64,000 nucleotides of DNA from the NCBI GenBank assembly GCA_022566715.1, contig JADFIH010000001.1:2420-66419 (forward strand), in the 5' to 3' direction. How positions within the stretch are numbered: position 1 is the stretch's first letter; each line of letters starts with the position of its first letter. Source of the stretch: Pseudomonadota bacterium (GTDB lineage: Bacteria > Pseudomonadota > Alphaproteobacteria > SHVP01). Shown here piece after piece: positions 40,476-58,773 of this stretch. A program made the position numbers and the translations under genes. The notes below the pieces were generated by a model. That model saw only the letters and a list, made by a program, of their open reading frames with translations. It ran no database searches and had not been told where the DNA came from.

Positions 40476-40478
40476 GCG

Positions 40479-41597
40479 TTAAACCCGCATAGGCATAAGG
40501 ACATAGAGGGCACGCTCATCACTAAGGTCGCTCACGATGGTCGGAGAGACCGAGTCCGCGAGCGCGAGCCGCGACACCTCTCCATCTATTTGTCCAGTGA
40601 TATCAAGGAGATACTTGGAGTTAAACCCGATCTCCATGGGTTCTCCCGGATAGGCGACCGACAATTCCTCGGTCGCGCTGCCGCTATCGGGGCTGGTGAC
40701 GGACAGCAGCAGCTTGTCTTTTTCGAGCGTTAGTTTCACCGACCGCGACTTTTCCGTGGAGATCGTCGAGACCCGGTCCACGGCGTCGGCGAATTGCTGC
40801 TTGTCGACATCGAGCATCTTGTCGTTCCCGACGGGGATGACGCGCTCATAATCCGGGAAGGTGCCGTCGATCAGCTTTGTCGTCAGAACCGTACTACCGA
40901 AGACGAACCGTATTTTGGTGTCCGACAGTGCGATTTCGATGTCGTCGTCACGGCCCTCGATCAGGCGCCGCATCTCGGTCACGGCCTTGCGCGGAAAAAT
41001 AATCCCAGGCATTCCCGCCGCGCCTTCCGGCAGCGGCGTTTCGACCTGCGCCAACCGGTGGCCGTCCGTCGCCACGGCGCGCAACATGGCGACGCCGCCG
41101 CTTTCCGCCGCGTGGAGGTAGATTCCGTTCAGGTAATAGCGCGTCTCCTCCGTCGAGATCGCGAAGCGCGTCTTGTCGATCAGGCGGCGAAGCGCCTCGG
41201 CGGACAGGGTGAAGGCGTGCGGTAATTCGCCCTCGCTCATGACCGGGAAATCCTCACGCGGCAGGCAAGGCAGCGTGAACACCGAACGGCCCGCGACCAG
41301 CGACAAACGGCCGCCCCCCTCGTCAAGCGAAAGCTCGACCTGGGCGCCCTCCGGCAGCTTACGCACGATGTCGTACAAGGTGTGGGCCGGGGTCGTCGTC
41401 GCACCGCCCTGCTTCATGTCCACCGGGACAGCCTCGACGATCGCGAGATCTAGATCCGTCGCCGTCAGGCTGAGCCGGCCGTCCTCGACCGACAATAGAA
41501 CGTTGGACAGAATCGGGATCGTGTTGCGGCGCTCGACAACATTTTGGACATGGCCAAGCGCGGACAATAGGGCCGCGCGTTCAATGGTTATCTTCAT
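40479..41597 (-). CDS. dnaN: DNA polymerase III beta sliding clamp
   Basis: Start MKITIERAALL. Three-domain clamp of about 372 aa. Confidence 0.9.
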   Translation of the reverse strand: MKITIERAALLSALGHVQNVVERRNTIPILSNVLLSVEDGRLSLTATDLDLAIVEAVPVDMKQGGATTTPAHTLYDIVRKLPEGAQVELSLDEGGGRLSLVAGRSVFTLPCLPREDFPVMSEGELPHAFTLSAEALRRLIDKTRFAISTEETRYYLNGIYLHAAESGGVAMLRAVATDGHRLAQVETPLPEGAAGMPGIIFPRKAVTEMRRLIEGRDDDIEIALSDTKIRFVFGSTVLTTKLIDGTFPDYERVIPVGNDKMLDVDKQQFADAVDRVSTISTEKSRSVKLTLEKDKLLLSVTSPDSGSATEELSVAYPGEPMEIGFNSKYLLDITGQIDGEVSRLALADSVSPTIVSDLSDERALYVLMPMRV

Positions 41598-41906
41598 CGC
41601 GTCTCTGAATGCTTTTGTTTGGGCGGACCCGGTGGGCCTGTCCTGGATTTCGGTTTCGTCCACGTTGATTCTGCCTCCTGCCCGGCTACGAATCCGGGCC
41701 CTGACGACAAGCCTCCAATTCAGGGTTTGGCGGGGCCTTACCGACCCCCGGACGCCTCAAGTTTTGCCCCAAAGGGGCGGGACACGGGGCCACCGCCCTG
41801 GTTGGCGATTATACCACAGGGACCGCGCCGAGGCCAGGACTCGACGCCCCGCGGGACGCCGCCGGTTGGCGCGCAAAGCACTGAAATCAAGCCGTATTTT
41901 TGGCGC

Positions 41907-43307
41907 CTAGGTCTCGAGCATGCGGCGCAGAAGATCGACGTCCTCGGCCAGATTGCTATCGCTCTCGCGCAACTCGTTGATCCGCTTGACGGCATGCATG
42001 ACCGTGGTGTGGTCGCGCCCGCCGAACTTGCGGCCAATCTCGGGCAAGGACCGCGAGGTCAACTGCTTGGCCAGGAACATCGCCACCTGGCGTGGCCGGG
42101 CCACGGCCCGCGCCCGGCGCGCGGAATGCATCTCCGAGATACGGATGTTGTAGTGCTCGGCCACCCGTTTCTGGATGTCCTCGATGGTGATGCGGCGGTC
42201 GTTGGACCGCAGGAGGTCACGCAACACCTCTTGGGTAGTGTCGATCGTGATGGCCTGCCCCACCAGATTGGAATAGGCCAGCACGCGGTTCAGGGCGCCT
42301 TCCAGTTCGCGCACGTTCGAGGTTATGCGGTGCGCCAGAAATTCCAGCACCTGAAGCGGTACGTTCTTGGCGTCGAGGTGCTGGACCTTCGACTGCAGAA
42401 TGCCGACGCGCAGCTCGTAGTCGGTCGAATGGATATCGGCCACGAGCCCCCAGCCGAGCCGCGAGCGCATGCGTTCCTCCATCCCATCGAGGTTCGAGGG
42501 CGAGCGGTCGCCGGAAATAATGATCTGCCGGTTCTGATCCACCAACGCATTGAATGTATGGAAGAATTCTTCTTGGGTGGATTCCTTGCCGCTAATGAAC
42601 TGCACGTCGTCGATCATCAGCACGTCGACCGAACGGAACAGTTGTTTGAACTGCATCACGTCCTTGAACCGCAGCGCGCGGATGAACTGGTACATGAACT
42701 TTTCCGCCGACAGGTAGATCACCTTACGGTCGGGATCGCGTTCGCGGATGTGCCAGGCGATGGCGTGCATGAGATGGGTCTTGCCCAACCCAACACCGCC
42801 GTAGAGGAAGAGAGGATTAAAGGGCACGGTCGGAGATTCGGCGGCGCGCCGCGAGGCCGCATACGCGAGTTCGTTGGTTTTGCCAACGACGAAATTTTCG
42901 AAAGTGAAGCGCGGGTCGAGTGGTGCGCCCGGGTCGGACAACGCGGACATCGGTCCGGCCGGCGTCGGGCGCCCGGCCTCAGCCCCTTTCGCCGCCTCCG
43001 GCGCAGGTTCGGACACCCGAGGTCCCGCGGGACGAACGTGAATCTCGGCCGCCGCGGTCGTATCGAACTCGTCGTTCCACAACGATCTTATCTTTTCCGC
43101 GTAGTGGGAAATCACCCAATCGCGCATGAACCGGGTCGGCAGGGTCATCATCATCCGGCCATCCCGCCCACGGGTCAGGTCGAGCTGGCGCAACCAACTG
43201 TTGAATGCGGCGTCACCTACCTCAGCTTTAAGTCGCCCCCTCAGGCGTTGCCAACTCTGGGAATCCTCGGGCGAAAGCCCCTGAGACGATGACACCGGCC
43301 CCACCAT
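41907..43307 (-). CDS. dnaA: chromosomal replication initiator protein DnaA
   Basis: AAA+ Walker A GGVGLGKTHL, Walker B LMIDDVQF, C-terminal DNA-binding domain (VARPRQVAMFLAKQLTSRSLPEIG). Confidence 0.95.
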   Translation of the reverse strand: MVGPVSSSQGLSPEDSQSWQRLRGRLKAEVGDAAFNSWLRQLDLTRGRDGRMMMTLPTRFMRDWVISHYAEKIRSLWNDEFDTTAAAEIHVRPAGPRVSEPAPEAAKGAEAGRPTPAGPMSALSDPGAPLDPRFTFENFVVGKTNELAYAASRRAAESPTVPFNPLFLYGGVGLGKTHLMHAIAWHIRERDPDRKVIYLSAEKFMYQFIRALRFKDVMQFKQLFRSVDVLMIDDVQFISGKESTQEEFFHTFNALVDQNRQIIISGDRSPSNLDGMEERMRSRLGWGLVADIHSTDYELRVGILQSKVQHLDAKNVPLQVLEFLAHRITSNVRELEGALNRVLAYSNLVGQAITIDTTQEVLRDLLRSNDRRITIEDIQKRVAEHYNIRISEMHSARRARAVARPRQVAMFLAKQLTSRSLPEIGRKFGGRDHTTVMHAVKRINELRESDSNLAEDVDLLRRMLET

Positions 43308-43308
43308 A

Positions 43309-43725
43309 TCAGGCCTGAATCCAGGGAAGGCCGGCGGCCTTCCAGCCCCCGGTCACGCCGCGGTGCCGGTCGCCGTCAAGATCGCCCTCGAACCCACCGG
43401 CTACGTTGAAGCACTTCGAATACCCTGCCGCCGTCATGGCGACCGCAGCCGCTTGGGACCGTGCGCCCGACCGGCAAAGAAATAAGATGCTCGCATCGGT
43501 GTCGGTGGCCTGCGCCCGAACCTCCTCGACGAAGGCCGGGTTCTGCTCCATCTTCGGTAGTGTTTGCCAAGACACCCGAACGGCCTGTTTCCGGATTCCA
43601 GAAAGATCGGGGGCGCCGACGAAGTTCCACTCCGCGGCCGTGCGCACGTCGACGAGTACCGCCGAGGATTCGTCGCCCAATCGGCGCCACGCTTCTTCGA
43701 CACTAATATCGCCTGAGTACGTCAT
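43309..43725 (-). CDS. rhodanese-domain sulfurtransferase
   Basis: Single rhodanese domain with active-site loop CRSGARS. Its stop codon abuts the dnaA start codon. Confidence 0.75.
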   Translation of the reverse strand: MTYSGDISVEEAWRRLGDESSAVLVDVRTAAEWNFVGAPDLSGIRKQAVRVSWQTLPKMEQNPAFVEEVRAQATDTDASILFLCRSGARSQAAAVAMTAAGYSKCFNVAGGFEGDLDGDRHRGVTGGWKAAGLPWIQA

Positions 43726-44268
43726 CGGAATTTGTATCTACCAATCTTCGGCTTGGAGCTATTCGCATCGAACTATTTTTTGAACCGATTATTTCGAGCG
43801 ATCATCCACCGCCCATGGCTCGTTCTATTGCGGCCCCTCAAACCATCACGTTTTAATTTTTTCCGTATGTGTTTACGACTCGAAATTTTATTGTGACTCA
43901 AGAATCGAAGTACGCTAGCGGCGACAGATCAATTGAACAATTGAACCGCAGCCCCACTCAGTACACTTCAAATTATCAAGTAATACTTCGGAGGCCCTCC
44001 CTTGCCCCCGGGTCGTATGCAACACATTAATGCCCCGCCCGGCGCCATGCAACTGCCTCGCCGTCCGCGAACGAGAAATTACCTCGCCGCATAGGCACAT
44101 GGGCAACACACTACATTTTGCTTGAAGTTGGCACACCGTCCCAAGATGTTTGGGCATCCTGTTTGAACAACAGAAAATTTTTCAACCCTGCGATTTGGCG
44201 ACGGCATGCCCCGAGGCACAAAAAAACCGCGCCAACCCCGGGCGCGGTTTTGTGTCGAAAAAAAACTT
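43726..44268. promoter_or_regulatory. AT-rich rpsT-dnaA intergenic region: candidate oriC / dnaA promoter
   Basis: A 540-bp region of markedly lower GC. Contains a DnaA-box-like ATCATCCAC, tandem AATTGAAC-AATTGAAC, and three GANTC sites within 35 bp. Confidence 0.4.
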
Positions 44269-44535
44269 TCAGACCGACATCGATTTAACGCGGCGCGACA
44301 GTTTCGACACGCGGCGCGATGCGGTGTTCTGTTTCATCACGCCCCGCCGAACACCACGCATGAGCTCTGGCTCGGCCTTCTTCAGCGCGTCCGCGGCCGC
44401 TTCACGGTCGCCACCTGCAACAGCGGTTTCGACATTCTTGATATGGGTGCGAATCCGGCTGACGCGCGCACGATTGATCGCGGTGCGGGTCTTGGTGCGG
44501 CGAATGCGCTTTTGGGCTGACTTATGATACGCCAT
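44269..44535 (-). CDS. rpsT: 30S ribosomal protein S20
   Basis: MAYHKSAQKRIRRTKTRTAINRARVSRIRT is a near-canonical S20 sequence. Confidence 0.9.
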   Translation of the reverse strand: MAYHKSAQKRIRRTKTRTAINRARVSRIRTHIKNVETAVAGGDREAAADALKKAEPELMRGVRRGVMKQNTASRRVSKLSRRVKSMSV

Positions 44536-44702
44536 GGCTACAACAATGAGTTTGGTTTGGAACGCGGCCTTATATCGCCTGGGGCCTCCACCGTCAACAT
44601 GCCAATTTCTGGCTGTTTTCCGCGGCGTTTCAGGGGAGAATTTGGCGAAGGGCCGGCCTGGGGGCCTAAACCGAACGGATGGCCCAAGGGGGCGCCCGCC
44701 GG

Positions 44703-45479
44703 TCAAGCGTGCTTGAAGTCGGGTTTTCGCTTTTCGACGAACGCCGCCATGCCTTCTTTTTGATCCGCCAGCGCGAATGTCGCATGAAAAAGGCGCCGTT
44801 CGAACCGCACGCCTTCCGACAAAGTCGTTTCATAGGCGCGGTTGACAGCTTCCTTCGCCATCATCACCGAAGGGCGCGACAGCGCGGCAATCTCGCCGGC
44901 AACCCGAACCGCTTCATCGACGAGCTCGGCGACGGGCAAAACTCGGCTGACCAGACCCGCCCGCTCGGCTTCGTCCGCGTCCATCGTACGGCCGGTCAGG
45001 ACCATCTCCATCGCTTTTGATTTACCAATGAAGCGTGTCAAACGTTGTGTGCCACCCGATCCCGGTATGACGCCCAATTTGATTTCCGGTTGGCCGAACT
45101 TTGCGTTTTCTCCGGCGAGTATGAAGTCGCACATCATCGCGATTTCACAACCGCCACCGAGTGCAAAGCCCGCGACCGCCGCAATGACCGGCTTGCGGCA
45201 GGTCGTGATCCGTTCCCAGTCTGAAGTAATAAAGTCTTCGGAGTAGGCCTGCGCAAAAGACTTGTCCTGCATCTCCTTGATATCGGCGCCGGCCGCGAAG
45301 GCCTTTTCGTTGCCCGTGATGACGACGGCGCCGATCGCGCCGTCATCCTCGAACGCATCGAGCGCCGATCCAAGCTCACGCATGAGCCTTGCGTTCAGCG
45401 CGTTAAGTGCGTCCGGCCGATTGAGCGTGATGAGTCCCACGGCGCCGCGGGTCTCGACAAGAATGTTTTCATAGGGCAT
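44703..45479 (-). CDS. enoyl-CoA hydratase (crotonase family)
   Basis: 258 aa with [11 protein letters not shown] and catalytic Glu residues ([17 protein letters not shown]). Confidence 0.85.
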
Positions 45480-45615
45480 GGCGCGCCTTTCCTCCCCAGT
45501 GCGGATCGATTTTGGCCGGGATCACCGCGCGGGGCGGTTCATGGAGCGAATCCGGCAACCCGAATATTTCGCTCTAACTTATTGATGTGGAGGGGATTCA
45601 CAAGTTTTGTCCGCA

Positions 45616-47145: not shown

Positions 47146-47979
47146 ATGACGCGGAGCGAAGAAATGCCCGACACAGCGTCGGATAACGGCGGCGCGGACG
47201 CCGAGGATACCACCGATTTTGGCTACCGCCGCGTGACGGCCGCGGAAAAACCGGAGCTGGTCCGCGGCGTCTTTGATTCAGTGGCCAACCGGTACGATCT
47301 CATGAACGATCTCATGAGCGGTGGCGTCCACCGCCTCTGGAAGAGCGCGCTGGTCGCCAAGCTCGATCCCCGGCCGCCCCTGCATTTCGTCGACGTGGCC
47401 GGCGGCACCGGCGATATCGCCTTTCGCATCCTTGCGCGCCTGAAGGCCCGCGCCGCGAAATCCGGCGAGGAGGCCGGAGCCGAGCGGAACCGCGCCACCA
47501 TCATCGACATCAACCAGCATATGCTGGACGTGGGCCGCGACCGGGCGCTCGACCGCGGTCTTATAGCCGGGCTGGACTGGGTTTGCGGCGACGCCACGGC
47601 CCTGCCGCTGGACGACTCGTCCGTCGATGCCTACACCATTGGGTTTGGCATTCGCAACGTCACCGGTATCGAGGAGGCTCTGAGGGAGGCCCGCCGCGTT
47701 CTGCGGCCGGGCGGCAGGTTCCTCTGCCTCGAATTCTGTCCGGTCGAGCGGCCCCTGCTGCGCCCCCTATACGACGCTTACTCCTTCGCGGTCGTGCCGG
47801 CGTTGGGCCGGGCCGTCGCGGGCGACGCCGAGTCCTATCGCTATCTGGTGGAAAGCATTCGCCGCTTCCCCGGACCGGAGAAGTTTACCGCCCTCATGGA
47901 GGCCGCGGGCCTCGAGCAGGTGCGGGTCCGCGCCTTAACCGGCGGTGTGGTCGCGCTGTACTCGGGTTGGCGCCTCTAG
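47146..47979 (+). CDS. ubiE: ubiquinone/menaquinone biosynthesis C-methyltransferase
   Basis: SAM-binding VDVAGGTGD and the conserved UbiE N-terminus FDSVANRYDLMNDLMSGGVHRLWK. Confidence 0.9.
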   Translation: MTRSEEMPDTASDNGGADAEDTTDFGYRRVTAAEKPELVRGVFDSVANRYDLMNDLMSGGVHRLWKSALVAKLDPRPPLHFVDVAGGTGDIAFRILARLKARAAKSGEEAGAERNRATIIDINQHMLDVGRDRALDRGLIAGLDWVCGDATALPLDDSSVDAYTIGFGIRNVTGIEEALREARRVLRPGGRFLCLEFCPVERPLLRPLYDAYSFAVVPALGRAVAGDAESYRYLVESIRRFPGPEKFTALMEAAGLEQVRVRALTGGVVALYSGWRL

Positions 47980-47991: not shown

Positions 47992-49539
47992 GTGTTCCGC
48001 GCCGCCCGTAATATTCTTCGGCTGATCAGCATCGCCCGCATTCTGGCGCGCCACGACGCCCTGTTCGTGCTCGATCTGCTCGGCCTGGGGCCCACGCCAG
48101 CACGCCTGGGCCGATTTTTTCTCCGCGGACCGCGCCGGGGCAGCCCTTTGCGCCAAGGGCAGCGACTGGCGGCCGCCCTGCGCGAACTTGGACCCGCCTT
48201 CATCAAGTTCGGCCAGACCTGGTCGACCCGCGCCGATCTCATCGGGGAAGAGATGGCCGACGATCTGGGGGAGTTGCGCGACCGGCTGCCGCCGTTCCCG
48301 TCCGATCGGGCCCGTCAAACCGTGGTAAAGGAACTCGGCCGTCCGATCGAGGAGCTGTTTTCCGAGTTCACCGACCAGCCGACCGCTGCCGCTTCCATCG
48401 CACAGGTCCATTTCGCGGTGACGATGGAGGGCGAGGAGGTCGCCGTGAAGGTCCTGCGGCCCGGCATCGAGAAGGCTTTTCAGCGCGACATCGAATTGCT
48501 CTTATGGCTCGCCGAGACCGCCGAGCGCACCCAGCCCGCAATGCGGAGGCTCAAACCGGTCGAGGTCGTCCGCGGCTTCTCGGATGTCGTCGACATCGAG
48601 ATGGACCTGCGCTTCGAGGCCGCGGCGGCCTCCGAGTTGCGCCAGAATTTCGAGGACGATCCGACCTTTCAGGTGCCGACCGTTCACTGGGCGCTCACCA
48701 GCCGCCGCGTACTCACCTTGGCGCGCATAACCGGAACCCCGCTCAGCGACCGCCAGACCCTGCTCGACGCGGGAATCGAGCCCAAGACGGTCATCACCAA
48801 TCTGTTGAACGCCTTTCTGCGCCAGGTCTTCCGCGACGGATTTTTTCATGCCGACCTGCACCCGGGAAACCTCTTCGCCGACGCCGACGGCAACATCCTT
48901 GCGGTCGATTTCGGGATCATGGGGCGCCTCGACATGCAATCGCGCCTGTTCCTTGCCGAATTGCTGCTCGCTTTCCTCTTGCGCGACTATTGGCGCGCCG
49001 CGGAGGTTCATTTTGAAGCGGGGTACATTCCCGCCGACCAATCGCTCGAGGCCTTCGCGCAGGCTTGCCGGTCGATTGGGGAGCCGATCCTGGGAAAACC
49101 GGCGACCGAGATCTCGATTGGCCGGCTGCTCTCCCAGCTCTTGCAAACGACGGAAAAGTTTCAGATGGAAACCCAACCGCAACTGCTGCTGCTGCAAAAA
49201 ACCATGGTGGTTGCGGAGGGGGTGTCGCGCCGCCTCGACCCGAACGTCGTGGTCTGGGAGATCTCACGGCCGGTTATCGAGGAATGGATACGCGGCAACC
49301 TGGGCCCGCAGGCTCAGCTGCGCGATTCGGCGAAGCAAGCCGTGGCGCTGGTGCGGCGCCTGCCGGCCCTGGTCGAGCGGGTGGAGAGCGTCATCGACCA
49401 ACTGGCGGGGGACGGCCTCAAGCTCGATCCCGAGAGCGCCAAGCTTATCGCCGCGGGCCAGAGCCGCGGCCGGTCCTTCGAGCGTACCCTGATCGTCATT
49501 GGGATACTTATCCTGCTCGCGGTCACGATCCTCTCGTAA
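47992..49539 (+). CDS. ubiB: ubiquinone biosynthesis regulatory kinase-like protein UbiB (ABC1/ADCK family)
   Basis: ABC1 kinase-like domain (AAASIAQVH, FFHADLHPGN, DFG) and a C-terminal TM helix. Follows ubiE by 13 nt. Confidence 0.9.
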   Translation: MFRAARNILRLISIARILARHDALFVLDLLGLGPTPARLGRFFLRGPRRGSPLRQGQRLAAALRELGPAFIKFGQTWSTRADLIGEEMADDLGELRDRLPPFPSDRARQTVVKELGRPIEELFSEFTDQPTAAASIAQVHFAVTMEGEEVAVKVLRPGIEKAFQRDIELLLWLAETAERTQPAMRRLKPVEVVRGFSDVVDIEMDLRFEAAAASELRQNFEDDPTFQVPTVHWALTSRRVLTLARITGTPLSDRQTLLDAGIEPKTVITNLLNAFLRQVFRDGFFHADLHPGNLFADADGNILAVDFGIMGRLDMQSRLFLAELLLAFLLRDYWRAAEVHFEAGYIPADQSLEAFAQACRSIGEPILGKPATEISIGRLLSQLLQTTEKFQMETQPQLLLLQKTMVVAEGVSRRLDPNVVVWEISRPVIEEWIRGNLGPQAQLRDSAKQAVALVRRLPALVERVESVIDQLAGDGLKLDPESAKLIAAGQSRGRSFERTLIVIGILILLAVTILS

Positions 49540-49645
49540 AATCATGGCCTGGGATCGGTATCCGAGCCGATCTTGGGGTCTTGTGCCCGCGGAAGCTCCA
49601 TATTAAATATACAACTAACTACCGTACTTAATCGAGGTTCCCACA

Positions 49646-50923
49646 TTGGCGGCAAGCAAACGGGTGCTGCTCATCATCTCGGGCGGCATCGCGGCCTATA
49701 AATGCCTGGAGCTGATCCGCCGTCTGACGGACGCGGACATCGCCGTGCGCTGCATCATGACGAAAGCGGCGGAGCGGTTCGTGACGCCCCTGTCGGTGGG
49801 CGCGCTGAGCCGCGATACGGTGTATTCGGACCTGTTCTCGCTCAAGGACGAGAGCGAGATGGGCCATATTCGGCTCTCGCGGGAGGCCGACCTGGTGGTG
49901 GTCGCCCCGGCAACCGCCGACATCATCGCCAAGATGGCCGCGGGTCTCGCCGATGACCTGGCGACAACGACCCTGGTGGCGACGGACAAACCGGTCCTGA
50001 TCGCACCCGCCATGAACGTGGCCATGTGGAAACATCCGGCGACCCAGCGCAACATTGCCCAGCTACGCGAGGACGGCATCGCCCTGATCGGCCCGGAAAC
50101 GGGGGAACTCGCGGACGGCGAGTACGGTACGGGCCGTATGTCCGAACCGGACGCTATCCTGCAAGCGATCGAGTCCCGCCTCGGCGGTCCCAAGGTGATC
50201 GGCCGCGACCGGTTTGTGGGACCGGGAACCGCCCTCAAGGGGCGCAGGGCCATTGTCACCGCCGGGCCGACCCACGAGGCGATCGACCCCGTTCGCTTCA
50301 TCGCCAACCGGTCGAGCGGCAAGCAGGGCTACGCCATTGCCGCCGCCCTTGCGCTTGCGGGAGCCGAGACCATCCTGGTGACGGGCCCCACGGACCTTGC
50401 GGCGCCGGACGGCGTCACGGTGGTTCCGGTGGAATCGGCCCGCGACATGCTGGCCGCCAGCACCGATTCGTTGCCCGCCGACATCGCCATCTGCGTTGCC
50501 GCCGTGGCCGATTGGCGCGTCGAGAATGAAACCGGCGCCAAACTCAAAAAAGGCGCCACGCCACCCGAGCTCAAGCTCATCCCAAACCCCGACATCCTGG
50601 CCATCCTGGCGGCATCGCGGACCCGCCCCGCGCTGGTCATCGGCTTTGCCGCCGAGACCGAACGCGTGGTCGAGAATGCCGCGGAGAAAAGGGTCCGGAA
50701 AGGCTGCGACTGGATGGTGGCGAACGATGTCTCGCCGGGCACGGGCACCTTTGGCGGCGACCGCAACCAAGTGCATCTGATTACCGCGGATGGCGCGGAA
50801 AGCTGGCCGAGCATGTCGAAAACGGAGGTCGCGGAGTGGCTCGTCGCCCGCATCGTCCGGACGCTGGGCCGCAAGGAAGACTCAACCCCCGGGCACGGCC
50901 CGACCCAGATCGCCGGCTCATGA
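49646..50923 (+). CDS. coaBC: bifunctional phosphopantothenoylcysteine decarboxylase / phosphopantothenate-cysteine ligase
   Basis: Flavoprotein N-domain ([13 protein letters not shown]) plus a CoaB C-domain. 425 aa. Confidence 0.9.
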
Positions 50924-51438
50924 GCGAAGCCGTCGTTCACGTCGAGCGGCTTGCTCACGCCGCCGGCCTGCCGCTCCCGGCCTATGCGACGCGGGACAGC
51001 GCCGGCGCCGATCTCTGCGCCGCCGTCTCGCAAGACGTCGTGCTGCGCCCAGGCGAACGGGCGCTCATTCCCTCGGGCTTTAAAATGGCCGTCAGCCCCG
51101 GATACGAGGCCCAACTCCGGCCACGCTCGGGCCTCGCCCTGCGCCACGGGGTCACGGTGCTGAACAGCCCGGGGACGATCGACGCGGATTACCGGGGAGA
51201 GGTGGGCGTCGTGCTGATCAACCTGGGAGACCGGGATTTCACGGTTCGGCGCGGCGACCGAATCGCCCAGATCGTCATTGGCCGGGTCGAAAGCGCGGTT
51301 TGGCGGGAAACCAGCACGCTAACGGAGACCTCACGTGGTTCGGCGGGTTTCGGTTCGACCGGACACGGTTCGACTAAGTTGACCGGCGGCGACGCCACGC
51401 CGCGCCGGGCACCGGGCCCCGTGACCGAGGCGTCCTAG
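50920..51438 (+). CDS. dut: dUTP diphosphatase
   Basis: dUTPase motifs ([30 protein letters not shown]). ATGA overlap with coaBC. About 20-aa C-terminal extension. Confidence 0.85.
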
Positions 51439-51442
51439 GGCG

Positions 51443-51895
51443 ATGCTTCATCTATCGAAAAAGATGCTGTTCGCCCTCGAGGCCGTGGTCGACATCGCCT
51501 ATAACGCCGGCAGCGAGCCCGTGCAATCCAAGGAGATCACGCGGCGCCAGGGCATCCCCCAACGCTACCTCGAGCAAGTCATGCAACGCCTTGTCCGTGC
51601 CGGCATCCTCAAGGGTGTGCGCGGCCCGCGCGGCGGTTATCGCCTGGCCCGGGAGCGCCGGCGCGTCACCGTCGGCCAAATCGCGCAGGTGGTGTACGAC
51701 CTCGATGAAGACGATGGCCCGGCCTATCCCACCGCGTCGCCGCTGGGGACGAAAGTGGTCCAACCCATGTGGGCGGAACTCCAGGACGGTTTGATGAATC
51801 GCCTCGACGCGATCACCGTTGAGGATTTATGCCGCCGCGCCCACGATACGGGTGTCGAAAGCGAGTCCCGGAAACGGCTGGACTACACGATTTGA
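51443..51895 (+). CDS. Rrf2-family transcriptional regulator lacking the IscR Fe-S cysteine triad (CymR-like)
   Basis: Winged-helix Rrf2 N-terminus. Only one Cys in the C-terminal half, so not IscR/NsrR. Immediately upstream of cysK. Confidence 0.8.
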   Translation: MLHLSKKMLFALEAVVDIAYNAGSEPVQSKEITRRQGIPQRYLEQVMQRLVRAGILKGVRGPRGGYRLARERRRVTVGQIAQVVYDLDEDDGPAYPTASPLGTKVVQPMWAELQDGLMNRLDAITVEDLCRRAHDTGVESESRKRLDYTI

Positions 51896-51916
51896 GGCGC
51901 GCCCGGCGCGTTCGGA

Positions 51917-52895
51917 GGTAACCGGTATGGACCCCCGCCCGGAGGCCCAGAAATGGTGCCGCGGCCAAATCTATGACAGCGTTGTCGATACCATCGGCGC
52001 GACGCCCTTGGTGCGCCTGCGCGCCCTCTGCGCCGAAGCGAACTGCAAAGCCGACGTTGTCGGCAAGCTTGAGTATTTCAACCCGTTGGCCTCGGTGAAG
52101 GACCGTATCGGCCGGGCCATGATCGAGGCCGCCGAACGCGAGGGCCGCATTCGCGACGGCACGGTCTTGGTCGAGCCCACGTCGGGCAATACGGGCCTGG
52201 CGCTGGCGTTCATATGCGCCGCCAAGGGATACCGCTTGATCCTGACCATTCCGGATAATACGACGGCCGGGCGGCGCAAGATGCTGGAGCTTCTGGGCGC
52301 CGAGATTCGCCTGACGCCGGCCTCGCAAGGTATGCGCGGCGCGATCCTCAAGGCGCACGAGATCGTTGAGGACCTGCCGGATGCGCTACTGTTGCAGCAG
52401 TTCGAGAATCCGGCCAATCCGGAGGCGCACCGCACCACGACGGGCGAGGAGATTTGGACGGATACGGCGGGTGAAGTCGATGTACTGGTGGCGGGCGTGG
52501 GCACCGGGGGCACGTTGACGGGCGTGGCGGAGTTGCTTAGGGAGCGCAAGCCGGAGGTTATGATCGTCGCCGTGGAGCCTGAGGATTCGGCTGTCCTGAC
52601 GGGTGGCCCCGCCGGGACGCATGCCATCGAAGGCATTGGCGCGGGGTTCAAGCCCGCCATATTGAAGGCGGAGCTGATTGACGAGATCGTGACCATCGCC
52701 AACGAAACGGCCCGGACGACCTCGCGCCGCGCCGCGCGCCTGCAAGGGCTGGCGGTGGGAATCTCCTCGGGCGCGGCCATCGCCGCGGCGCTGGAGGTGG
52801 GCTCGCGCCCCGGCATGGAGGGCAAGCTGATCGTGGCCGTGTTGCCGGATTTCGCCGAACGCTACCTATCGACACCCCTGTTCGACGATCTCTAG
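51917..52895 (+). CDS. cysK: cysteine synthase (CysK/CysM family, PLP-dependent)
   Basis: PLP-lysine motif SVKDRIG, TSGNTG, GVGTGGT. RBS GGAGG precedes ATG 51917. Confidence 0.85.
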
Positions 52896-52915
52896 GGCCC
52901 CTGTTCGAAACCCTC

Positions 52916-53722
52916 ATGGCTGAACCGATGGACTTTTCCGAGGAGCAAATCCAGCGCTATGCCCGGCACATCATCCTTTCCGAGGTGGGCGGCACGGGGC
53001 AGGCCAAGCTGCTCGAGTCCAAGGTCCTGGTCATCGGGGCGGGGGGCCTTGGATCGCCCGTGTTGATGTATCTCGCCGCGGCCGGGGTCGGAACCATCGG
53101 CATCGTCGACGATGACCAAGTCAGCCTGTCGAACTTGCAGCGCCAGATCATTCACACGAGCGGCCGGATCGGCGAGAATAAGACGGAAAGCGCCGCCGCG
53201 ACCCTGGCGGCCATCAATCCGGACGTATCCGTCGTCCGGCACACCCTGCGCCTGAACGCCGGCAACGTCATGGACCTGATCGCGGATTACGATGTCGTGG
53301 CCGACGGGTCGGACAATTTCGAGACCCGCTTCCTCGTCAACGACGCCTGCCATATCGGCGGAAAGACCCTGGTCTCGGCCGCCATCCTGCGCTTCGACGG
53401 TCAGCTTTCCACCTTCAGATCCCACGAAGGGGACGGCCATCCGTGCTACCGCTGCATCTTCCCCGAGGCGCCGCCCCCTGGCCTGATCCCGAGTTGCGCC
53501 GAGGGGGGCGTGTTGGGAGCGTTGGCGGGCACGATGGGATCAATGCAGGCCACCGAGGTCATCAAGGAACTCCTGGGCATCGGCGAGAGCCTGTCGGGCA
53601 CCCTATTGATCTACGATGGCCTCGCAACGTCCTTCCGCAAGGTGAGGGTCCGCCCCGACCCGGCCTGCAAGCTGTGCGGGGCGCAGGCCACCATTACGGA
53701 CCTGTCCGCCCATGCCGCCTGA
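52916..53722 (+). CDS. ThiF/MoeB-family E1-like adenylyltransferase (MoeZ-like, no rhodanese domain)
   Basis: Nucleotide-binding GAGGLGS, then a Cys4 zinc site (CYRC ... CKLC). Confidence 0.8.
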   Translation: MAEPMDFSEEQIQRYARHIILSEVGGTGQAKLLESKVLVIGAGGLGSPVLMYLAAAGVGTIGIVDDDQVSLSNLQRQIIHTSGRIGENKTESAAATLAAINPDVSVVRHTLRLNAGNVMDLIADYDVVADGSDNFETRFLVNDACHIGGKTLVSAAILRFDGQLSTFRSHEGDGHPCYRCIFPEAPPPGLIPSCAEGGVLGALAGTMGSMQATEVIKELLGIGESLSGTLLIYDGLATSFRKVRVRPDPACKLCGAQATITDLSAHAA

Positions 53723-54161
53723 TTCCGAACCGCCCCGCCCGTCCAAGCTCTCGCTCGTCGTCTCTTCGGGCGATTTCGACAAGGTGCATTATGCCTTGGC
53801 CATGGCGAGCGCCGCGGTGGCCGTCAATGTGCCGGCGACCCTGTTTTTCACCATGGAAGCGATCCACGCGCTCAAGAAACCGGGCGGCGGAGAGTCCCCG
53901 GGCTGGCACGTTTTGCGCGCGGGAGACGGACGGCGGGCGCGCGAAGTCGACGAGCAATACGCTAGCCGCGGCGTCGCCCGCTTCAATGAGCTCTTGGAGG
54001 CCTGCCGCGACCTGGGCGCGGCCTTCATGATCTGCGACATGGGGCTGCGCGCCACCGGGCTCGAAATGGCCGATCTGCGCGACGATATCGACTACCGGCA
54101 AGGCGGACTCGTGACCTTCCTGAACGACGCCCGCGCCGATGGCGCCATGGTGTTCATCTAA
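53712..54161 (+). CDS. DsrE/DsrF-like sulfur-relay family protein
   Basis: DsrE fold pattern with a candidate active Cys in FMICDMG. Start overlaps the thiF/moeB 3' end. Confidence 0.6.
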   Translation: MPPDSEPPRPSKLSLVVSSGDFDKVHYALAMASAAVAVNVPATLFFTMEAIHALKKPGGGESPGWHVLRAGDGRRAREVDEQYASRGVARFNELLEACRDLGAAFMICDMGLRATGLEMADLRDDIDYRQGGLVTFLNDARADGAMVFI

Positions 54162-54165
54162 CAGA

Positions 54166-54290
54166 GAACAGAGGACAGGGATCAGGGATCAGGGATCAGG
54201 GATCAGGGATCAGACAGAGGGCCGAAAACAGGAATCAGGGATCAGAGAAGGCGAAACGCCTCTGATTACTGATATCTGATCCCTGGAATC
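54166..54290. repeat. CAGGGAT heptamer microsatellite with inverted partner forming a long hairpin (bidirectional terminator region)
   Basis: Five perfect tandem CAGGGAT copies (54166-54200), extra GGAATCAGGGATCAGAG, and downstream inverted copies (CTGATATCTGATCCCTGGAATCTGAT). Sits between convergent dsrE-like and 2-hydroxyacid dehydrogenase genes. Confidence 0.7.
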
Positions 54291-54307: not shown

Positions 54308-55294
54308 CTAAAGCAGTTGCGGCAGCACCCGGTCCGGTGGCCGATGGCCGTCAAAAAAGGTGCGGATGTTGATCAGCACCTTCTCGCCCATATCGATCCG
54401 GCCTTCCAGGGTGGCCGAACCGATGTGCGGTAAAAGAACCACGTTATCCAGCGCCAGCAGCTCGGGGTTCACTTTTGGCTCGTGCTCGTAGACGTCGAGC
54501 CCGGCGCCGCTCAATTCGCCGTCCCTGAGCATTTGCACCAGAACCTCCTCGTCCACGACCTCGCCGCGCGAGGTGTTGACGACGTAGGCGCTGGGCTGCA
54601 TCAGCTTGAGCCGGCGCCCGGACAAGAGATGATAGGTGGCGGGCGTATGCGGACAATTGACCGAGACGATGTCCATATGCGCTAGCATTTGATCGAGGCT
54701 CTCCCAATAGGTGGCCTCCAGTTCGGCCTCGGTGTCCTCGGCCACGCGATTGCGGTTGTGGTAGTGGATCGACAAGCCGAAGCCGCGGGCGCGCCGCGCC
54801 ACGGCCGTACCGATGCGCCCCATCCCGAGGATGCCCAGGCGTTTGCCCCAAATCCGGCGGCCCAACATGAAGTTCGGCGCCCAACCCGTCCACTTTCCGG
54901 CGCGCAACAGACGCTCGCCTTCGCCAAGCCGCCGGGGGACCGAGAGGATGAGCGCCATGGTCATGTCCGCCGTATCCTCGGTCAGGACCCCCGGCGTGTT
55001 GGTCACGGTAATGCCGCGCTCACTCGCAGCGGCGAGGTCTATGTGGTCGATCCCGGTGCCGAAGCTGGCGATCAGTTTTAGGCGCGGCGCGGCCTCGGCG
55101 ATGATTTGGGCGTCGACCCGGTCGGTCACGGTCGGCACAAGAACATCCGCCGATTGCACGGCGCCGATCAGATCTTCCCGCGACAACGCCTTGTCCGCCA
55201 CGTTGAGGCGGGCGTCGAACAGCTCCATCATCCGTGTCTCCACCGGATCGGGCAGCTTACGGGTTACGAAAACGACCGGTTTTTTCGTGGACAT
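54308..55294 (-). CDS. D-isomer-specific 2-hydroxyacid dehydrogenase (glyoxylate/hydroxypyruvate reductase-like)
   Basis: NAD-binding GILGMGRIGTAVARRA, catalytic Arg/Glu/His (NTSRG, LPHIGSAT). Start MSTKKPVVFV. Confidence 0.85.
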   Translation of the reverse strand: MSTKKPVVFVTRKLPDPVETRMMELFDARLNVADKALSREDLIGAVQSADVLVPTVTDRVDAQIIAEAAPRLKLIASFGTGIDHIDLAAASERGITVTNTPGVLTEDTADMTMALILSVPRRLGEGERLLRAGKWTGWAPNFMLGRRIWGKRLGILGMGRIGTAVARRARGFGLSIHYHNRNRVAEDTEAELEATYWESLDQMLAHMDIVSVNCPHTPATYHLLSGRRLKLMQPSAYVVNTSRGEVVDEEVLVQMLRDGELSGAGLDVYEHEPKVNPELLALDNVVLLPHIGSATLEGRIDMGEKVLINIRTFFDGHRPPDRVLPQLL

Positions 55295-55508
55295 GGCGGG
55301 TTCGACGACCGTTGCGGGGGCCAGACGGCTACCATTTCTTAGCAAATCCCCCCTATGGCGGCAAATGGCGCCCTCCAAGGAACGCGGGGCTTGACCGCTA
55401 TTCGAGTGCCTGGGCATAAAGGCGCGGAGCTTTCGGCGGCGGCCAAAGGTTCAATGTTCCGTTCAGTTTGGATTTGTCGAGGTTAGAGCCACGACCGCCT
55501 ATTTTAGT

Positions 55509-56303: not shown

Positions 56304-56858
56304 CTATTCGAAATCGCCGGCCAGCGCTTCACGCGCTTCGGCGGGCAGGACCGCGGTATGGCCATAATTGGGATGGCCGATTCCGACCAGCACCTCGACC
56401 GCGGGATCGCGGAACCCGGCCACCTGCGCGTCGCTGAAGGGGAAATGCAGAAAATGGACGGACGAGGCCTTGCCGTCGCTCCGGGTGCGCTCGACATCGT
56501 CTTCGGGCACGGCGGTGATCGTTTCCTGCCCCACCTTTAAGGTGACCGTGCCCTCGACGCCGCCAAGCCGGCGCAGCTCCCGGCCGCGCCGTTCCGGATC
56601 GGGAATTTCGAACATCAGTGTCGCCACGAGTTCACGCCCCTTCGGCACGAGCGGGTTGTAGGCCGCAAGTTCGCCCTCGACCTGCGCCTCGCCACCCTTT
56701 TCGATGTGAAGCATCTCGTGAATCTGGATCCACATGGTGTCGTAGCTCTCGAAATAGAGGGTGGCGAAGGGACCGACCTCGACCCGGCGTTTTTTCTTGA
56801 TGGCCGACGCTTCGGCGCGCCGCTGTTTGCGGACGTCGGCGTAATCCGCCATCGGCAT
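56304..56858 (-). CDS. DUF3501-family protein
   Basis: Conserved partner of HdrD-like Fe-S proteins and rubrerythrin. Start MPMADYADVRK. Confidence 0.65.
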   Translation of the reverse strand: MPMADYADVRKQRRAEASAIKKKRRVEVGPFATLYFESYDTMWIQIHEMLHIEKGGEAQVEGELAAYNPLVPKGRELVATLMFEIPDPERRGRELRRLGGVEGTVTLKVGQETITAVPEDDVERTRSDGKASSVHFLHFPFSDAQVAGFRDPAVEVLVGIGHPNYGHTAVLPAEAREALAGDFE

Positions 56859-56907
56859 GATGTCGGCGCGAGTGATTTCCCGTTTCAAAGCGCTCACCGT
56901 CCGACCC

Positions 56908-58275
56908 TCACTCCGCCCCACTCTCCGACCCAATCTCCGAAATGCCGTAGGCGCGCGCCATGAGCTCCACCGGGTGGTAGGCGCGGCCACCAGGGACGGG
57001 CTCCTGGCCGAGCTTTTCCACCCCTTGAACGATGTGCTTGGCCGCCAAGGGACATTCGGATGCGAGGTAAGCCTTGCCGGCCTCGCGCGCCTTTTTGGCC
57101 ACGGGCTTGCCCACCTTTATGGCGACCTCGAAATTCTCACGTTTGATGCCCCACGATCCGCCATGCCCGGAGCAGCGTTCGATCACCGAGACATCCGTGT
57201 CGGGCAACAGGCGCAGGAGCTCGGCCGCCTTCGGGCCCATATTCTGGGCCCGCGCGTGGCAGGCGAGATGCACCGCGACGCCCCCCGGTAAGGGCGACAG
57301 GCCGTCCGCCAGCCCCTCGGCGCGGGCAATATCGACAATGTATTCGGTGATGTCCTTCGTCGCCCGCGAAAGCCGTTTGACGTCCGGGTCATCGGGCAGG
57401 ATGAGCGGCCATTCGAACTTCAGCATGAGAGAGCAAGACGGGATCAAGGCGACGATGTCGTAACCCTTCCCGATCCATGGCGCCATTTCCCGGGCGATCC
57501 GGCGGGCCCGGTTCGCAACCGACTCCAAATCGCCCTGCTCAAATTGCGGCATGCCGCAGCATTCTGGATAGACCACCTCGGTTTCGACGCCGTTCTTGGC
57601 GAGAACCCCCTGAGCCGCAACGCCGATTCCGGGACTGTTGTAATTCGCGAAACACGTCGCGTAGAGCACGGCCTTGCGCGCGGACGCCGGTGCATCGGAC
57701 GCAACCCGCGGCGGCGCCGACTTGCTTCGTCCGGCGAAGGTCTTGCGGTGGAATCGGGGCAGCTCCACGTCGCGGTGAATCCCGGCGATCCCCTCCAGCA
57801 GGGGCCGCGTCAGGCCATTGCCGCGCTTGGAGCCCCAGTTCGCCAGACCCGAAACCTTGCCCGCCAACCGCCCGTTGCGGTCGGTCTTGGCGATCTGCCG
57901 GTCGAAAAAACCGATGCCGTGGGATTTCTTTTCGGCGACCCGGTAGCGCAGCATGAGATGGGGGAAGTCGAGGTTGAACTCGTGCGGCGGCACATAAGGA
58001 CATTTGGTCATGAAGCACATGTCGCACAGGGTGCAGGCATCGACCACCGGAGCAAAGTCCTTGCTGTCCACCGAATCGAGCTCGCCGGTTTCCGAGCCGT
58101 CGATCAAATCGAAGAGGCGCGGGAACGAATCGCATAAGTTGAAACAGCGCCGGCAACCGTGGCAAATGTCGAAAACACGCCGAAGCTCCGCGTCGAGCTT
58201 GCCCGTGTCGGTGAAATCGGGATTGCGCCAATCGATGGGATGGCGTATCGGCGCTTCGGTGCCGCCCTCTTTCAT
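56908..58275 (-). CDS. heterodisulfide-reductase-related (HdrD/GlpC-like) Fe-S protein with two CCG domains
   Basis: Two ferredoxin-like cysteine motifs (CHGCRRCFNLC, CTLCDMCFMTKCP) and CCG-domain cysteines (YPECCGMP). Confidence 0.75.
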   Translation of the reverse strand: MKEGGTEAPIRHPIDWRNPDFTDTGKLDAELRRVFDICHGCRRCFNLCDSFPRLFDLIDGSETGELDSVDSKDFAPVVDACTLCDMCFMTKCPYVPPHEFNLDFPHLMLRYRVAEKKSHGIGFFDRQIAKTDRNGRLAGKVSGLANWGSKRGNGLTRPLLEGIAGIHRDVELPRFHRKTFAGRSKSAPPRVASDAPASARKAVLYATCFANYNSPGIGVAAQGVLAKNGVETEVVYPECCGMPQFEQGDLESVANRARRIAREMAPWIGKGYDIVALIPSCSLMLKFEWPLILPDDPDVKRLSRATKDITEYIVDIARAEGLADGLSPLPGGVAVHLACHARAQNMGPKAAELLRLLPDTDVSVIERCSGHGGSWGIKRENFEVAIKVGKPVAKKAREAGKAYLASECPLAAKHIVQGVEKLGQEPVPGGRAYHPVELMARAYGISEIGSESGAE

Positions 58276-58353
58276 GTCGCTGTTCGACCCCGTGCCTGAG
58301 AGGAAAAAGGGGGCCGCGATGAAGCCCCCTTCTCTAAGATCAGTTGAGTGGTT

Positions 58354-58773
58354 CTAGTCGAGCGTGTCCAGCGCCTTCTGGAAACGGCCGGCGTGAGATT
58401 TCTCGGCCTTTGCCAGGGTTTCAAACCAATCGGCGATTTCCTCGAACCCCTCGTCCCGCGCGGTACGCGCCATGCCGGGATACATGTCGGTGTACTCATG
58501 GGTCTCGCCGACGACAGCGGCCTTGAGGTTCAGCTGCGTACTGCCTATGGGCTCTCCCGTCGCCGGGTCGCCGGTTTCCTCGAGATACTCGAGATGCCCA
58601 TGGGCATGGCCGGTCTCACCCTCGGCGGTGGAGCGGAAGACCGCCGACACGTCGTTGTAGCCTTCGACATCCGCCTTTTGGGCGAAATAGAGATAGCGGC
58701 GATTCGCCTGCGACTCACCTGCAAACGCATCCTTCAAATTTTTTTCCGTCTTCGAACCGGCAAGCGATGCCAT
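58354..58773 (-). CDS. rubrerythrin-family diiron protein (no rubredoxin domain)
   Basis: Ferritin-like ExxH pairs (EGETGHAHGH, EYTDMYPGMARTARDEGFEEIADWFETLAKAEKSHAGRF). 139 aa. Confidence 0.8.
   Translation of the reverse strand: MASLAGSKTEKNLKDAFAGESQANRRYLYFAQKADVEGYNDVSAVFRSTAEGETGHAHGHLEYLEETGDPATGEPIGSTQLNLKAAVVGETHEYTDMYPGMARTARDEGFEEIADWFETLAKAEKSHAGRFQKALDTLD

Follow-up and report, generated by a model that had tools for sequence, protein, structure and literature searches.

A DsrE-fold protein whose gene overlaps that of a MoeB-type E1 enzyme may feed persulfide sulfur to the carriers that this E1 adenylates. The two genes close a run of six, coaBC-dut-rrf2-cysK-thiF-dsrE-like, and judged from sequence comparison we give about an even chance to the reading that the run is a conserved housekeeping operon of the Rhodospirillales type, made of three separable modules and containing such a sulfur donor. 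coaBC-dut would be an ancient pair, rrf2-cysK would combine a local Rrf2-family regulator with a canonical cysteine synthase using O-acetylserine and sulfide, and moeB-dsrE-like would join a MoeB-type E1 to a dedicated DsrE-fold protein. The preliminary description of this DNA had proposed a cysteine synthesis module fed by a sulfur carrier or persulfide; that proposal is not borne out.

Layout and conservation of the probable operon

The window is the whole stretch of DNA analysed, 64 kb in length. The open reading frames of Rrf2, CysK, ThiF/MoeB and the DsrE-like protein lie at the positions and on the strand first given, and profile matches agree with their stated families. The features discussed below are:

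49580..49632, + strand: candidate operon promoter with operator or leader 5′ of coaBC, read from sequence
49580-49585, + strand: -35-like CTTGTG within this candidate promoter
49603-49608, + strand: -10-like TTAAAT within this candidate promoter
49612-49630, + strand: conserved element ACAACTAACTACCGTACTT within the candidate promoter/operator region 5′ of coaBC
49646..50923, + strand: coaBC, phosphopantothenoylcysteine synthetase/decarboxylase (TIGR00521, 409.4 bits against a cut-off of 219.7)
50920..51438, + strand: dut, dUTP diphosphatase (NF001862, 195.9 bits against 103)
51443..51895, + strand: Rrf2-family regulator (PF02082, 99.8 bits)
51927..52895, + strand: CysK, cysteine synthase of the O-acetylserine sulfhydrylase A type (TIGR01139, 400.9 bits against 350.95)
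52916..53722, + strand: MoeB/ThiF-type E1-like adenylyltransferase (PF00899, 268.7 bits)
53712..54161, + strand: DsrE-fold protein of the DrsE_2 family, proposed persulfide carrier (PF13686, 42.2 bits against 25)
54033..54035, + strand: codon of Cys108, the predicted persulfide-carrying residue of the DsrE-like protein (motif [ML][VI]C[ED]MGLRA)

The last four genes follow directly on coaBC and dut, which overlap by 4 nt, with a gap of 4 nt between the dut stop and the Rrf2 ATG. The 20 nt separating the CysK stop from the ThiF ATG and the 11-nt overlap of thiF with the DsrE-like gene are also as originally described. The gap between Rrf2 and CysK had been given as 21 nt and measures 31 nt (Rrf2 stop at 51895, CysK ATG at 51927); the Shine-Dalgarno sequence GGAGG of cysK occupies 51914-51918, and no in-frame start codon for CysK is present at 51917. 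Between coaBC and the stop of the DsrE-like gene, simple scans detect a single promoter-like site, which is no excess above chance, and nothing resembling a terminator on the coding strand. coaBC is the probable first gene of the transcription unit.

About 90 fetched loci, chiefly from Rhodospirillales, contain the block, and since 60 fetched loci share the same six-gene order the arrangement is not due to chance. It splits into the modules coaBC-dut, rrf2-cysK and moeB-dsrE-like. Six full-length loci and one truncated locus (L020, L042, L055, L061, L072, L080, L045) hold coaBC-dut-thiF-dsrE-like without rrf2-cysK, and in two more (L004, L033) thiF-dsrE-like lies outside the coaBC block. The spacing from cysK to thiF ranges from -4 to 1482 nt; an unrelated 358-aa gene stands between the two in many Thalassospira, where spacers of 226-287 nt also occur. 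Because these loci belong to related lineages, some of the conservation reflects inherited synteny and not independent selection.

The tight coupling of the E1 with the DsrE-fold protein, part of the preliminary description, is supported. Of 87 loci whose upstream sequence is long enough to tell, 86 have thiF directly 5′ of the DsrE-like gene; the remaining one has it as a truncated gene call, so that the pair is never separated. The two genes share 11 nt at their stop and start in 48 loci, and in another 14 the overlap is 14, 8 or 4 nt; this conserved overlap points to selection for coupled expression.

The MoeB-type E1 and its DsrE-fold neighbor

The E1 comprises 268 aa and consists of the ThiF domain alone, with a 13-residue tail beyond the second CxxC. 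Both CxxC pairs are kept, in agreement with its earlier description as a stand-alone enzyme with a Cys4 zinc site and no rhodanese domain, and alignment to E. coli MoeB (1jw9) shows that the crossover-loop cysteine of SCAEGGV is retained along with the zinc cysteines. The protein is placed in the MoeB/ThiF family by PF00899 and by the MoeB subfamily model NF004281 (307.5 against 266), and among structures it scores 191.7 bits with 1jw9 and 182.6 with ThiF. It falls below the cut-offs of the equivalog models that assign a pathway, namely MoeB TIGR02355 (216.9 against 376.55) and ThiF TIGR02356 (249.1 against 275.25). The best raw scores of this rhodanese-less enzyme are to models of rhodanese-fused MoeB and of MoeZ. 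The top score belongs to NF006444 (386 against 449), matched at profile positions 116-377 of 387, which is the ThiF part; the MoeZ model NF005902, also below its cut-off (330 against 647), covers query residues 6-263 including the C-terminal tail. This tail was considered as a mark of genomes with a DsrE-like gene and discarded, being not specific to them.

The neighboring protein belongs to the DsrE superfamily by PF13686 and, at a borderline score, by PF02635 (22.8 against 22.7). Its AlphaFold2 model (pLDDT 90.6) has the DsrE fold, with 3pnx (1.4e-10), 2qs7 (2.6e-10), 3mc3, YchN and DsrEFH as the top Foldseek matches, and a profile of the protein run against the PDB finds 2qs7 at E = 3.8e-11. 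The conserved cysteine reported earlier is Cys108, which is invariant in 24 of 24 aligned homologues. It aligns with the cysteine of the DsrE3-like structures 2qs7 and 3pnx, i.e., with the DsrE active-site position, and in the model lies at the end of a strand (104-108) ahead of a helix (109-114). In DsrE-family proteins the cysteine at the equivalent position carries sulfur in vivo and in vitro (PMC11094781, PMC4175335). Alignment and model together predict that Cys108 is the persulfide-carrying residue. A second conserved cysteine, C98, is found 10 residues away in 22 of 24 sequences. The protein does not reach the DsrE2 equivalog NF047629 (31.7 against 210, with the C-terminal third alone matched) and forms a small clade of its own, with 58 clusters (50% identity) at E ≤ 1e-30. 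Automated annotation names it a 'peroxiredoxin family protein'.

Stand-alone MoeB depends on a persulfide donor in trans, while MOCS3 uses a fused rhodanese domain (PMC5372717). A DsrE-type persulfide carrier in place of the MoeZ-type rhodanese domain, as the preliminary description had suggested, is in our judgment the most economical reading of the pair. MoeB would adenylate ubiquitin-like sulfur carriers at their C-terminal glycine; these carriers would be encoded at other sites of the genome, MoaD being the expected one and ThiS a possible one. A cysteine desulfurase or some relay protein would load Cys108 with a persulfide, and the DsrE-like protein would hand this sulfur on to the acyl-adenylated carrier bound by MoeB, yielding a thiocarboxylate. 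We infer each of these transfer steps, as well as the identity of the carrier. Such a transfer would make the DsrE-like protein the in-trans counterpart of the rhodanese domain of MoeZ, MOCS3 and Uba4, and of TusA for E. coli MoeB.

Known systems share several elements with this scheme. MoeZ, MOCS3, Uba4 and the rhodanese-MoeB fusions also match a MoeB-type E1 one-to-one with a single-cysteine persulfide carrier, and the chemistry proposed here is that described for MOCS3 (PMC5372717), but the partner here is a separate DsrE-fold polypeptide rather than a rhodanese domain. Like the E1 of the window, E. coli MoeB is a stand-alone protein of about 250-270 aa with a zinc Cys4 and a small persulfide carrier in trans (PMC5372717). 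However, the TusA that serves it together with IscS has another fold and is not encoded beside moeB, whereas in the window the gene of the proposed carrier overlaps that of the E1. The DsrEFH/TusBCD proteins and DsrE2-DsrE5 (closest 3pnx and 2qs7) have the same fold and an invariant cysteine where the strand ends and the helix starts. DsrEFH and TusBCD form a three-subunit set in contrast to the single gene here, and the partner of all these proteins is TusE, DsrC, TusA or sHdr instead of an E1. Unlike DsrEFH and DsrE2-DsrE5, the present protein is found in non-sulfur-oxidizer contexts.

No carrier gene accompanies the pair. The preliminary description saw no GG-ended carrier ORF, and indeed no credible one of 55-140 aa exists anywhere in the 64-kb window. 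Across 87 sequences (86 related loci and the window, 1.26 Mb), tblastn with MoaD and ThiS of E. coli and CysO of M. tuberculosis as queries, together with clustering of GG-ended ORFs, produced neither a MoaD-, ThiS- or CysO-like match nor a conserved GG-ended ORF. One weak ThiS-like match lies about 4 kb downstream in a single locus (L039). The window contains no carrier gene, cysteine desulfurase, or molybdenum cofactor or thiamine gene, and in none of the loci is the pair linked to a downstream thiolation enzyme. An Rfam search of the window and 5 loci for riboswitches of the Moco, TPP or SAM type gave no match at gathering score, and 4 loci in which a long spacer precedes thiF gave none at E ≤ 0.5.

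CysK and the Rrf2 regulator

The synthase scores above the cut-off of the CysK equivalog TIGR01139, matches PALP with 232 bits and shows the SVKDR and TSGNTG motifs in its translation. It fails both CysM models (TIGR01138, 273.8 against 394.2; NF008735, 266.1 against 413). Among solved structures M. tuberculosis CysK1 (2q3b, 373.6 bits) is its closest relative, and none of the top 60 is a chain named as a CysM-type enzyme. By these comparisons it is a canonical sulfide-dependent O-acetylserine sulfhydrylase, apart from CysM and the O-phosphoserine enzymes, an outcome that the preliminary description had itself named as counting against a carrier-fed module. Its link to the sulfur-transfer pair would be indirect only: CysK would supply cysteine for CoaB and for the desulfurases from which persulfide is formed. 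The coaBC product consumes cysteine.

The regulator belongs to the Rrf2 superfamily (PF02082, cut-off 30; TIGR00738, 101.5 against 73.3). It fails the models of IscR (79.2 against 207.55) and CymR (69.2 against 195), and as far as such scores can tell it is a member of no named subfamily. The IscR ligand set is Cys92, Cys98 and Cys104; bar isolated singletons, cysteine is absent from positions 90-110 across 68 orthologues. The protein had been called Cys-less, which is correct for the IscR ligand positions but not for the protein as a whole, because Cys130 is present and conserved in 66 of the 68 orthologues. IscR of Rhodobacter sphaeroides is also an Rrf2 protein with a single C-terminal cysteine, and it binds an Fe-S cluster (PMC4618611). 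Like CymR-CysK of Bacillus and Staphylococcus, and like IscR, the protein is a winged-helix Rrf2 regulator; it is without the three-Cys site and is associated with cysK. Unlike CymR, it is nearer to IscR among solved structures (IscR of T. potens and E. coli, then B. subtilis CymR, 2y75, at 54.9 bits, below IscR), and its gene adjoins cysK, probably in the same transcription unit.

The layout of promoter and element 5′ of coaBC is kept in most related loci. Of 62 distinct loci with rrf2, 45 contain the element ACAC-N8-12-CGT[ATG]AAw, against 0 of 7 without rrf2 (Fisher p = 3e-4; background 1.4% per 123-nt window), an association that can only suggest a link because the pattern was drawn up from these same sequences after inspection and the loci are related. 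The palindrome TGTAG-N-CTACA, found in some rrf2-cysK spacers, was set aside, as it is absent from the window. We infer the targets and signal of Rrf2: it probably controls the whole unit through the coaBC promoter and, in some lineages, from a site in front of cysK.

Alternative roles and significance

One alternative, that of the preliminary description, is that CysK, or a CysM-like activity of it, is fed by an E1-activated carrier or by the DsrE-like persulfide, giving a protected route similar to that of CysO, CysM and MoeZ under a CymR-like regulator. The block shares with the M. tuberculosis CysO-CysM-MoeZ-Mec pathway that an E1 and a homologue of PLP-dependent cysteine synthases are encoded in one neighborhood. 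In favor of this alternative, the adjacency of cysK and thiF is widespread, it is kept in loci that lack rrf2 or the DsrE-like gene (L085, L086, L087, L036), the gaps are short in most lineages outside Thalassospira, and the genome could encode a carrier at another site. Against this, the synthase is of the CysK type and closest to a sulfide-dependent enzyme, the E1 is without a rhodanese domain, the window and the related loci hold no CysO-, MoaD- or ThiS-like gene, and Rrf2 fails the CymR model; a JAMM protease was not seen beside the cluster. thiF-dsrE-like occurs without cysK in nine loci, and Thalassospira sets cysK and thiF apart, so rrf2-cysK and the E1-DsrE pair, once described as one cysteine module, are separable. 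Also counting against such a module, the coaBC-dut-linked position of the E1 holds a close homologue, 73% identical in two of the three cases, in three fetched genomes (L085, L086, L087) that have no DsrE-like gene. With a canonical CysK, separable modules and no carrier found in the window or the related loci, a CysO-type or persulfide-fed cysteine route is unsupported, and we regard it as very improbable.

The same three genomes bear on what the DsrE-like protein does, since they keep MoeB and show that its partner is dispensable or replaceable. The protein may have a job unrelated to the E1, such as buffering or detoxification of reactive sulfur or general persulfide relay, and sit in the operon for co-expression only. 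Several DsrE subgroups are of unknown or proposed detoxification function (PMC11094781), and the peroxiredoxin label would agree with this. Among the best 150 matches of a profile search of 1.84 billion representatives there is no fusion of ThiF with the DsrE-like protein, which leaves the pairing without that kind of backing; one 7219-aa match in this search resembles a repeat artefact. Yet the adjacency to thiF is invariant, even after relocation, and the conserved overlap of 4-14 nt implies selection for stoichiometric expression coupled to the E1, not to cysK or coaBC. An unrelated job is unlikely. Somewhat less likely still is a role beside or downstream of the E1, in which the protein takes sulfur from the thiocarboxylated carrier for, e.g., a tRNA-thiolation enzyme, or C98 and C108 resolve an acyl-disulfide. 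The spacing of two conserved cysteines would suit the latter, MOCS3 requires a second cysteine to release the thiocarboxylate (PMC5372717), and proteins of the DsrE family act in sulfur relays as acceptors as well as donors (PMC11094781). However, the crossover-loop cysteine of MoeB could itself resolve the intermediate, and the pair has no thiolation enzyme linked to it.

Persulfide donation by the DsrE-like protein to MoeB-bound carriers is left as the preferred reading, and the pairing is a plausible addition, on sequence grounds, to the known scheme of carrier sulfuration. Sulfur reaches the carriers through IscS/TusA in E. coli and through a fused rhodanese domain in eukaryotes and actinobacteria; to our knowledge, its delivery to adenylated MoaD or ThiS is settled for a few organisms only. 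No paper describing a DsrE-MoeB pairing was found in searches combining DsrE with MoeB, ThiF, MoaD or adenylyltransferase, for PF13686/COG2210, or for Rrf2 with cysK and Alphaproteobacteria. The most specific form of the proposal is put forward tentatively, at slightly less than an even chance: a MoeB-type E1 would have in the DsrE-fold protein a persulfide donor of its own, dedicated to it and made in stoichiometric amount. Next to fused rhodanese domains and TusA/YnjE-type donors this would be a third way of bringing sulfur to the adenylates of ubiquitin-like carriers, placed in one Rrf2-controlled operon with cysteine and CoA biosynthesis. A new cysteine route was the more exciting idea and has been removed as unsupported. 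The analysis also draws attention to an uncharacterized single-Cys Rrf2 protein linked to cysK in alphaproteobacteria, with candidate operators. If the proposal is true, the DsrE-fold partner of MoeB would represent a new class of donor for carrier sulfuration and would provide a first function for an uncharacterized DsrE-family clade from organisms that are not sulfur oxidizers.

The gene block and its surroundings

A ubiquinone-gene pair precedes a co-directional run of six genes that includes the sulfur cluster and is followed by a convergent gene.

Genes of the block and its flanks (window coordinates, strand, gene)
47146-47979, +, ubiE
47992-49539, +, ubiB
49646-50923, +, coaBC
50920-51438, +, dut
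51443-51895, +, Rrf2-family gene
51927-52895, +, cysK (ATG at 51927, GGAGG at 51914-51918)
52916-53722, +, thiF/moeB, encoding a ThiF/MoeB-type E1
53712-54161, +, DsrE-like gene
54308-55417, convergent to the DsrE-like gene, 2-hydroxyacid dehydrogenase

The gaps of 4 nt (dut/rrf2), 20 nt (cysK/thiF) and -11 nt (thiF/DsrE-like) in the preliminary description match the sequence; the rrf2-cysK gap, given there as 21 nt, measures 31 nt with the cysK ATG at 51927. From coaBC to the end of the DsrE-like gene, simple scans detected nothing resembling a terminator on the coding strand and a single promoter-like site, which is no excess over chance. No credible small GG-ended carrier ORF is visible across the 64-kb window, as originally observed, and Pfam annotation of 43 further window ORFs gave no MoaD, ThiS, molybdenum cofactor (Moco), thiamine or cysteine-desulfurase gene. 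A tandem heptamer array, (CAGGGAT)n, at 54160-54214 (100% matches over 54176-54213) occupies part of the intergenic region that separates the DsrE-like gene from the convergent dehydrogenase gene. Adjoining the cluster at 56304-58773 is a block encoding a DUF3501 protein, a CCG-domain (heterodisulfide-reductase-like) protein and rubrerythrin, which is kept in several relatives (loci L001, L085 and L087) and is there followed by Fur.

The genes gyrB, recF, dnaN and dnaA on the minus strand (36817-45615) mark a replication-origin neighbourhood, so that dnaA and the sulfur cluster are no more than about 10 kb apart. The gene immediately upstream of dnaA (43309-43725) encodes a single-domain rhodanese of 138 aa. 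Next, before fpg, come roughly 1.9 kb that lack a convincing ORF and may contain oriC. Farther away, the glyoxylate-shunt genes for isocitrate lyase and malate synthase (16825-21670) stand beside a divergent ScfR-type regulator (HTH, Peptidase_M78, ScfRs).

Gene order in relatives

In a pattern scan limited to one genome per species, 386 loci encoded a relative of the DsrE-like protein; the best 80 of the 386 were fetched, and exact-protein look-ups added 11 further loci. Among the named genera are Thalassospira, Magnetospirillum, Paramagnetospirillum, Telmatospirillum, Terasakiella, Magnetovibrio and Skermanella. Examples of complete genomes with the block are those of Thalassospira lucentensis (CP191544.1), T. 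australica (CP085258.1) and Paramagnetospirillum caucaseum.

Gene orders among the fetched loci (the others are truncated contigs with only part of the block)
coaBC-dut-rrf2-cysK-thiF-dsrE-like: 60 loci
coaBC-rrf2-cysK-thiF-dsrE-like, without dut: 3 loci
coaBC-dut-thiF-dsrE-like, without rrf2-cysK: 6 full-length loci and 1 truncated
thiF-dsrE-like at a different place: 2 loci (L004, L033)
dut-cysK-thiF-dsrE-like, without rrf2: 1 locus (L036)
(rrf2)-cysK-thiF kept, DsrE-like gene absent: 3 loci (L085, L086 and L087, the last from Zavarzinia)

The block is modular, being composed of coaBC-dut, rrf2-cysK and thiF-dsrE-like, and the flanks of the six-gene unit vary by lineage. Of the 87 loci with enough sequence upstream, 86 have thiF next to the DsrE-like gene, and the remaining one (L088) has a truncated thiF call. 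The overlap of the thiF stop with the DsrE-like start is 11 nt long in 48 loci; another 14 loci have overlaps of 14, 8 or 4 nt. By contrast, the spacing from cysK to thiF ranges from -4 to 1482 nt. An unrelated 358-aa ORF sits between these two genes at 6111-7187 of locus L021, and at the same position in many Thalassospira. Among the three modules only thiF-dsrE-like has the hallmarks of obligate co-function: the two genes are always adjacent, their translational coupling is conserved, and the pair persists where the neighbouring module has been deleted and where the pair itself has been relocated.

The cysteine synthase and the Rrf2 regulator

The preliminary description saw in these genes a possible cysteine-synthesis module fed by a sulfur carrier or persulfide under a CymR-like regulator. 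The synthase passes the CysK equivalog cut-off (400.9 against 350.95) and falls below that of both CysM models. Its top solved relatives are structures of M. tuberculosis CysK1 (2q3b and 3zei, about 373 bits), and no chain among the 60 best structure matches is a CysM-type enzyme by name. By every available sequence test it is an ordinary O-acetylserine sulfhydrylase. None of the fetched loci has a gene resembling MoaD, ThiS or CysO, or a GG-ended ORF that is conserved. The cysteine-synthesis reading fails on the CysK/CysM test, on the lack of a carrier in the window and the fetched loci, and because cysK and the E1 pair can be separated. The link of cysK to that pair is more plausibly one of metabolic bookkeeping, in which its product cysteine would be consumed by CoaB and turned into persulfide by desulfurases.

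The Rrf2 protein scores below the IscR and CymR cut-offs and is nearer IscR than CymR among solved structures. It was called Cys-less; it does lack cysteine at the IscR ligand positions, but the term is inaccurate because C130 is kept, in 66 of 68 orthologues. Lack of the three cysteines is compatible with a cofactor: the IscR of Rhodobacter sphaeroides, which has a single Cys, is able to bind an Fe-S cluster (PMC4618611).

Upstream of coaBC most loci carry a CTTGCx -35-like hexamer, an AT-rich -10-like box and, further down, the element ACAC-N8-12-CGT[ATG]AAw (window 49580-49632 for the promoter-like region and element). The element is a candidate operator of the operon's own Rrf2 protein, since it occurs in 45 of 62 distinct upstream regions of loci with rrf2 and in 0 of 7 without (background 1.4%, Fisher p = 3e-4); it is only a lead, because the pattern was set after seeing the same data and the loci are related. 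The rrf2-cysK spacer of 7 loci, and in Zavarzinia the region ahead of coaBC, contain a different, AT-rich palindrome, TGTAG-N11-13-CTACA, which the window lacks.

Sites of TGTAG-N11-13-CTACA (locus, coordinates), 8 of the 33 matches with at most 1 mismatch across the roughly 1.3 Mb fetched
L017, 6121-6142
L056, 2928-2949
L068, 6079-6101
L079, 6206-6227
L083, 6059-6080
L027 and L028, 4878-4898
L087, 3718-3738

The E1 and its proposed DsrE-like partner

As first described, the E1 stands alone without a rhodanese domain: it consists of nothing but a ThiF domain, which keeps both CxxC pairs of the Cys4 site. It exceeds the cut-off of the MoeB subfamily model (307.5 against 266) but that of no pathway-specific equivalog. 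Full-length alignments to E. coli MoeB (191.7 bits) and E. coli ThiF (182.6 bits) show that the zinc site and the crossover-loop Cys are retained. The highest raw scores come from the ThiF portions of rhodanese-fused models, namely NF006444 (positions 116-377 of 387) and MoeZ. Thirteen residues extend past the end of E. coli MoeB and are covered by the MoeZ profile. This tail beyond the last CxxC, xTITDLSxH (window 53680-53722; also at the ThiF C-termini in L001-L087), is conserved with or without a DsrE-like gene behind thiF. It resembles the linker into the rhodanese domain of MoeZ-type fusions, a likeness that hints at descent of the E1 from a rhodanese-fused ancestor.

The DsrE-like protein matches PF13686 and misses the DsrE2 cut-off. 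Its predicted fold (pLDDT 90.6) has 3pnx, 2qs7, 3mc3, YchN and DsrEFH as structural neighbours. An invariant residue, Cys108, lies within the motif [ML][VI]C[ED]MGLRA and, in the model, at a strand-helix junction; in alignments it coincides with the Cys of 2qs7 and of 3pnx. C98 is nearly invariant. At the position equivalent to Cys108, DsrE3A, DsrE3C and DsrE have a sulfur-carrying Cys (PMC4175335, PMC11094781). The family is small, with 58 clusters (50% identity) at E <= 1e-30 and 290 at E <= 1e-10. One 7219-aa representative, P0454, matches positions 7-55 of the profile in 34 stretches, probably an alanine-rich repeat artefact.

The most economical role for the DsrE-like protein would be that of a trans-acting persulfide donor of the rhodanese-less E1, with sulfur-transfer steps, a carrier and a pathway (Moco, thiamine or other) that we infer; the carriers would be encoded elsewhere in the genome. 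Such a donor would be analogous to the fused rhodanese domain of MOCS3 and to TusA, which serves E. coli MoeB (PMC5372717). Full-text literature searches found no paper linking a DsrE-family protein to MoeB, ThiF or MoaD and none combining Rrf2, cysK and Alphaproteobacteria, and the DsrE classification papers used for comparison do not mention an E1-linked group. The logic of an E1 plus a persulfide donor is well known; what would be new, as judged from comparative genomics only, is the DsrE fold of the donor and its fixed gene pair with the E1.
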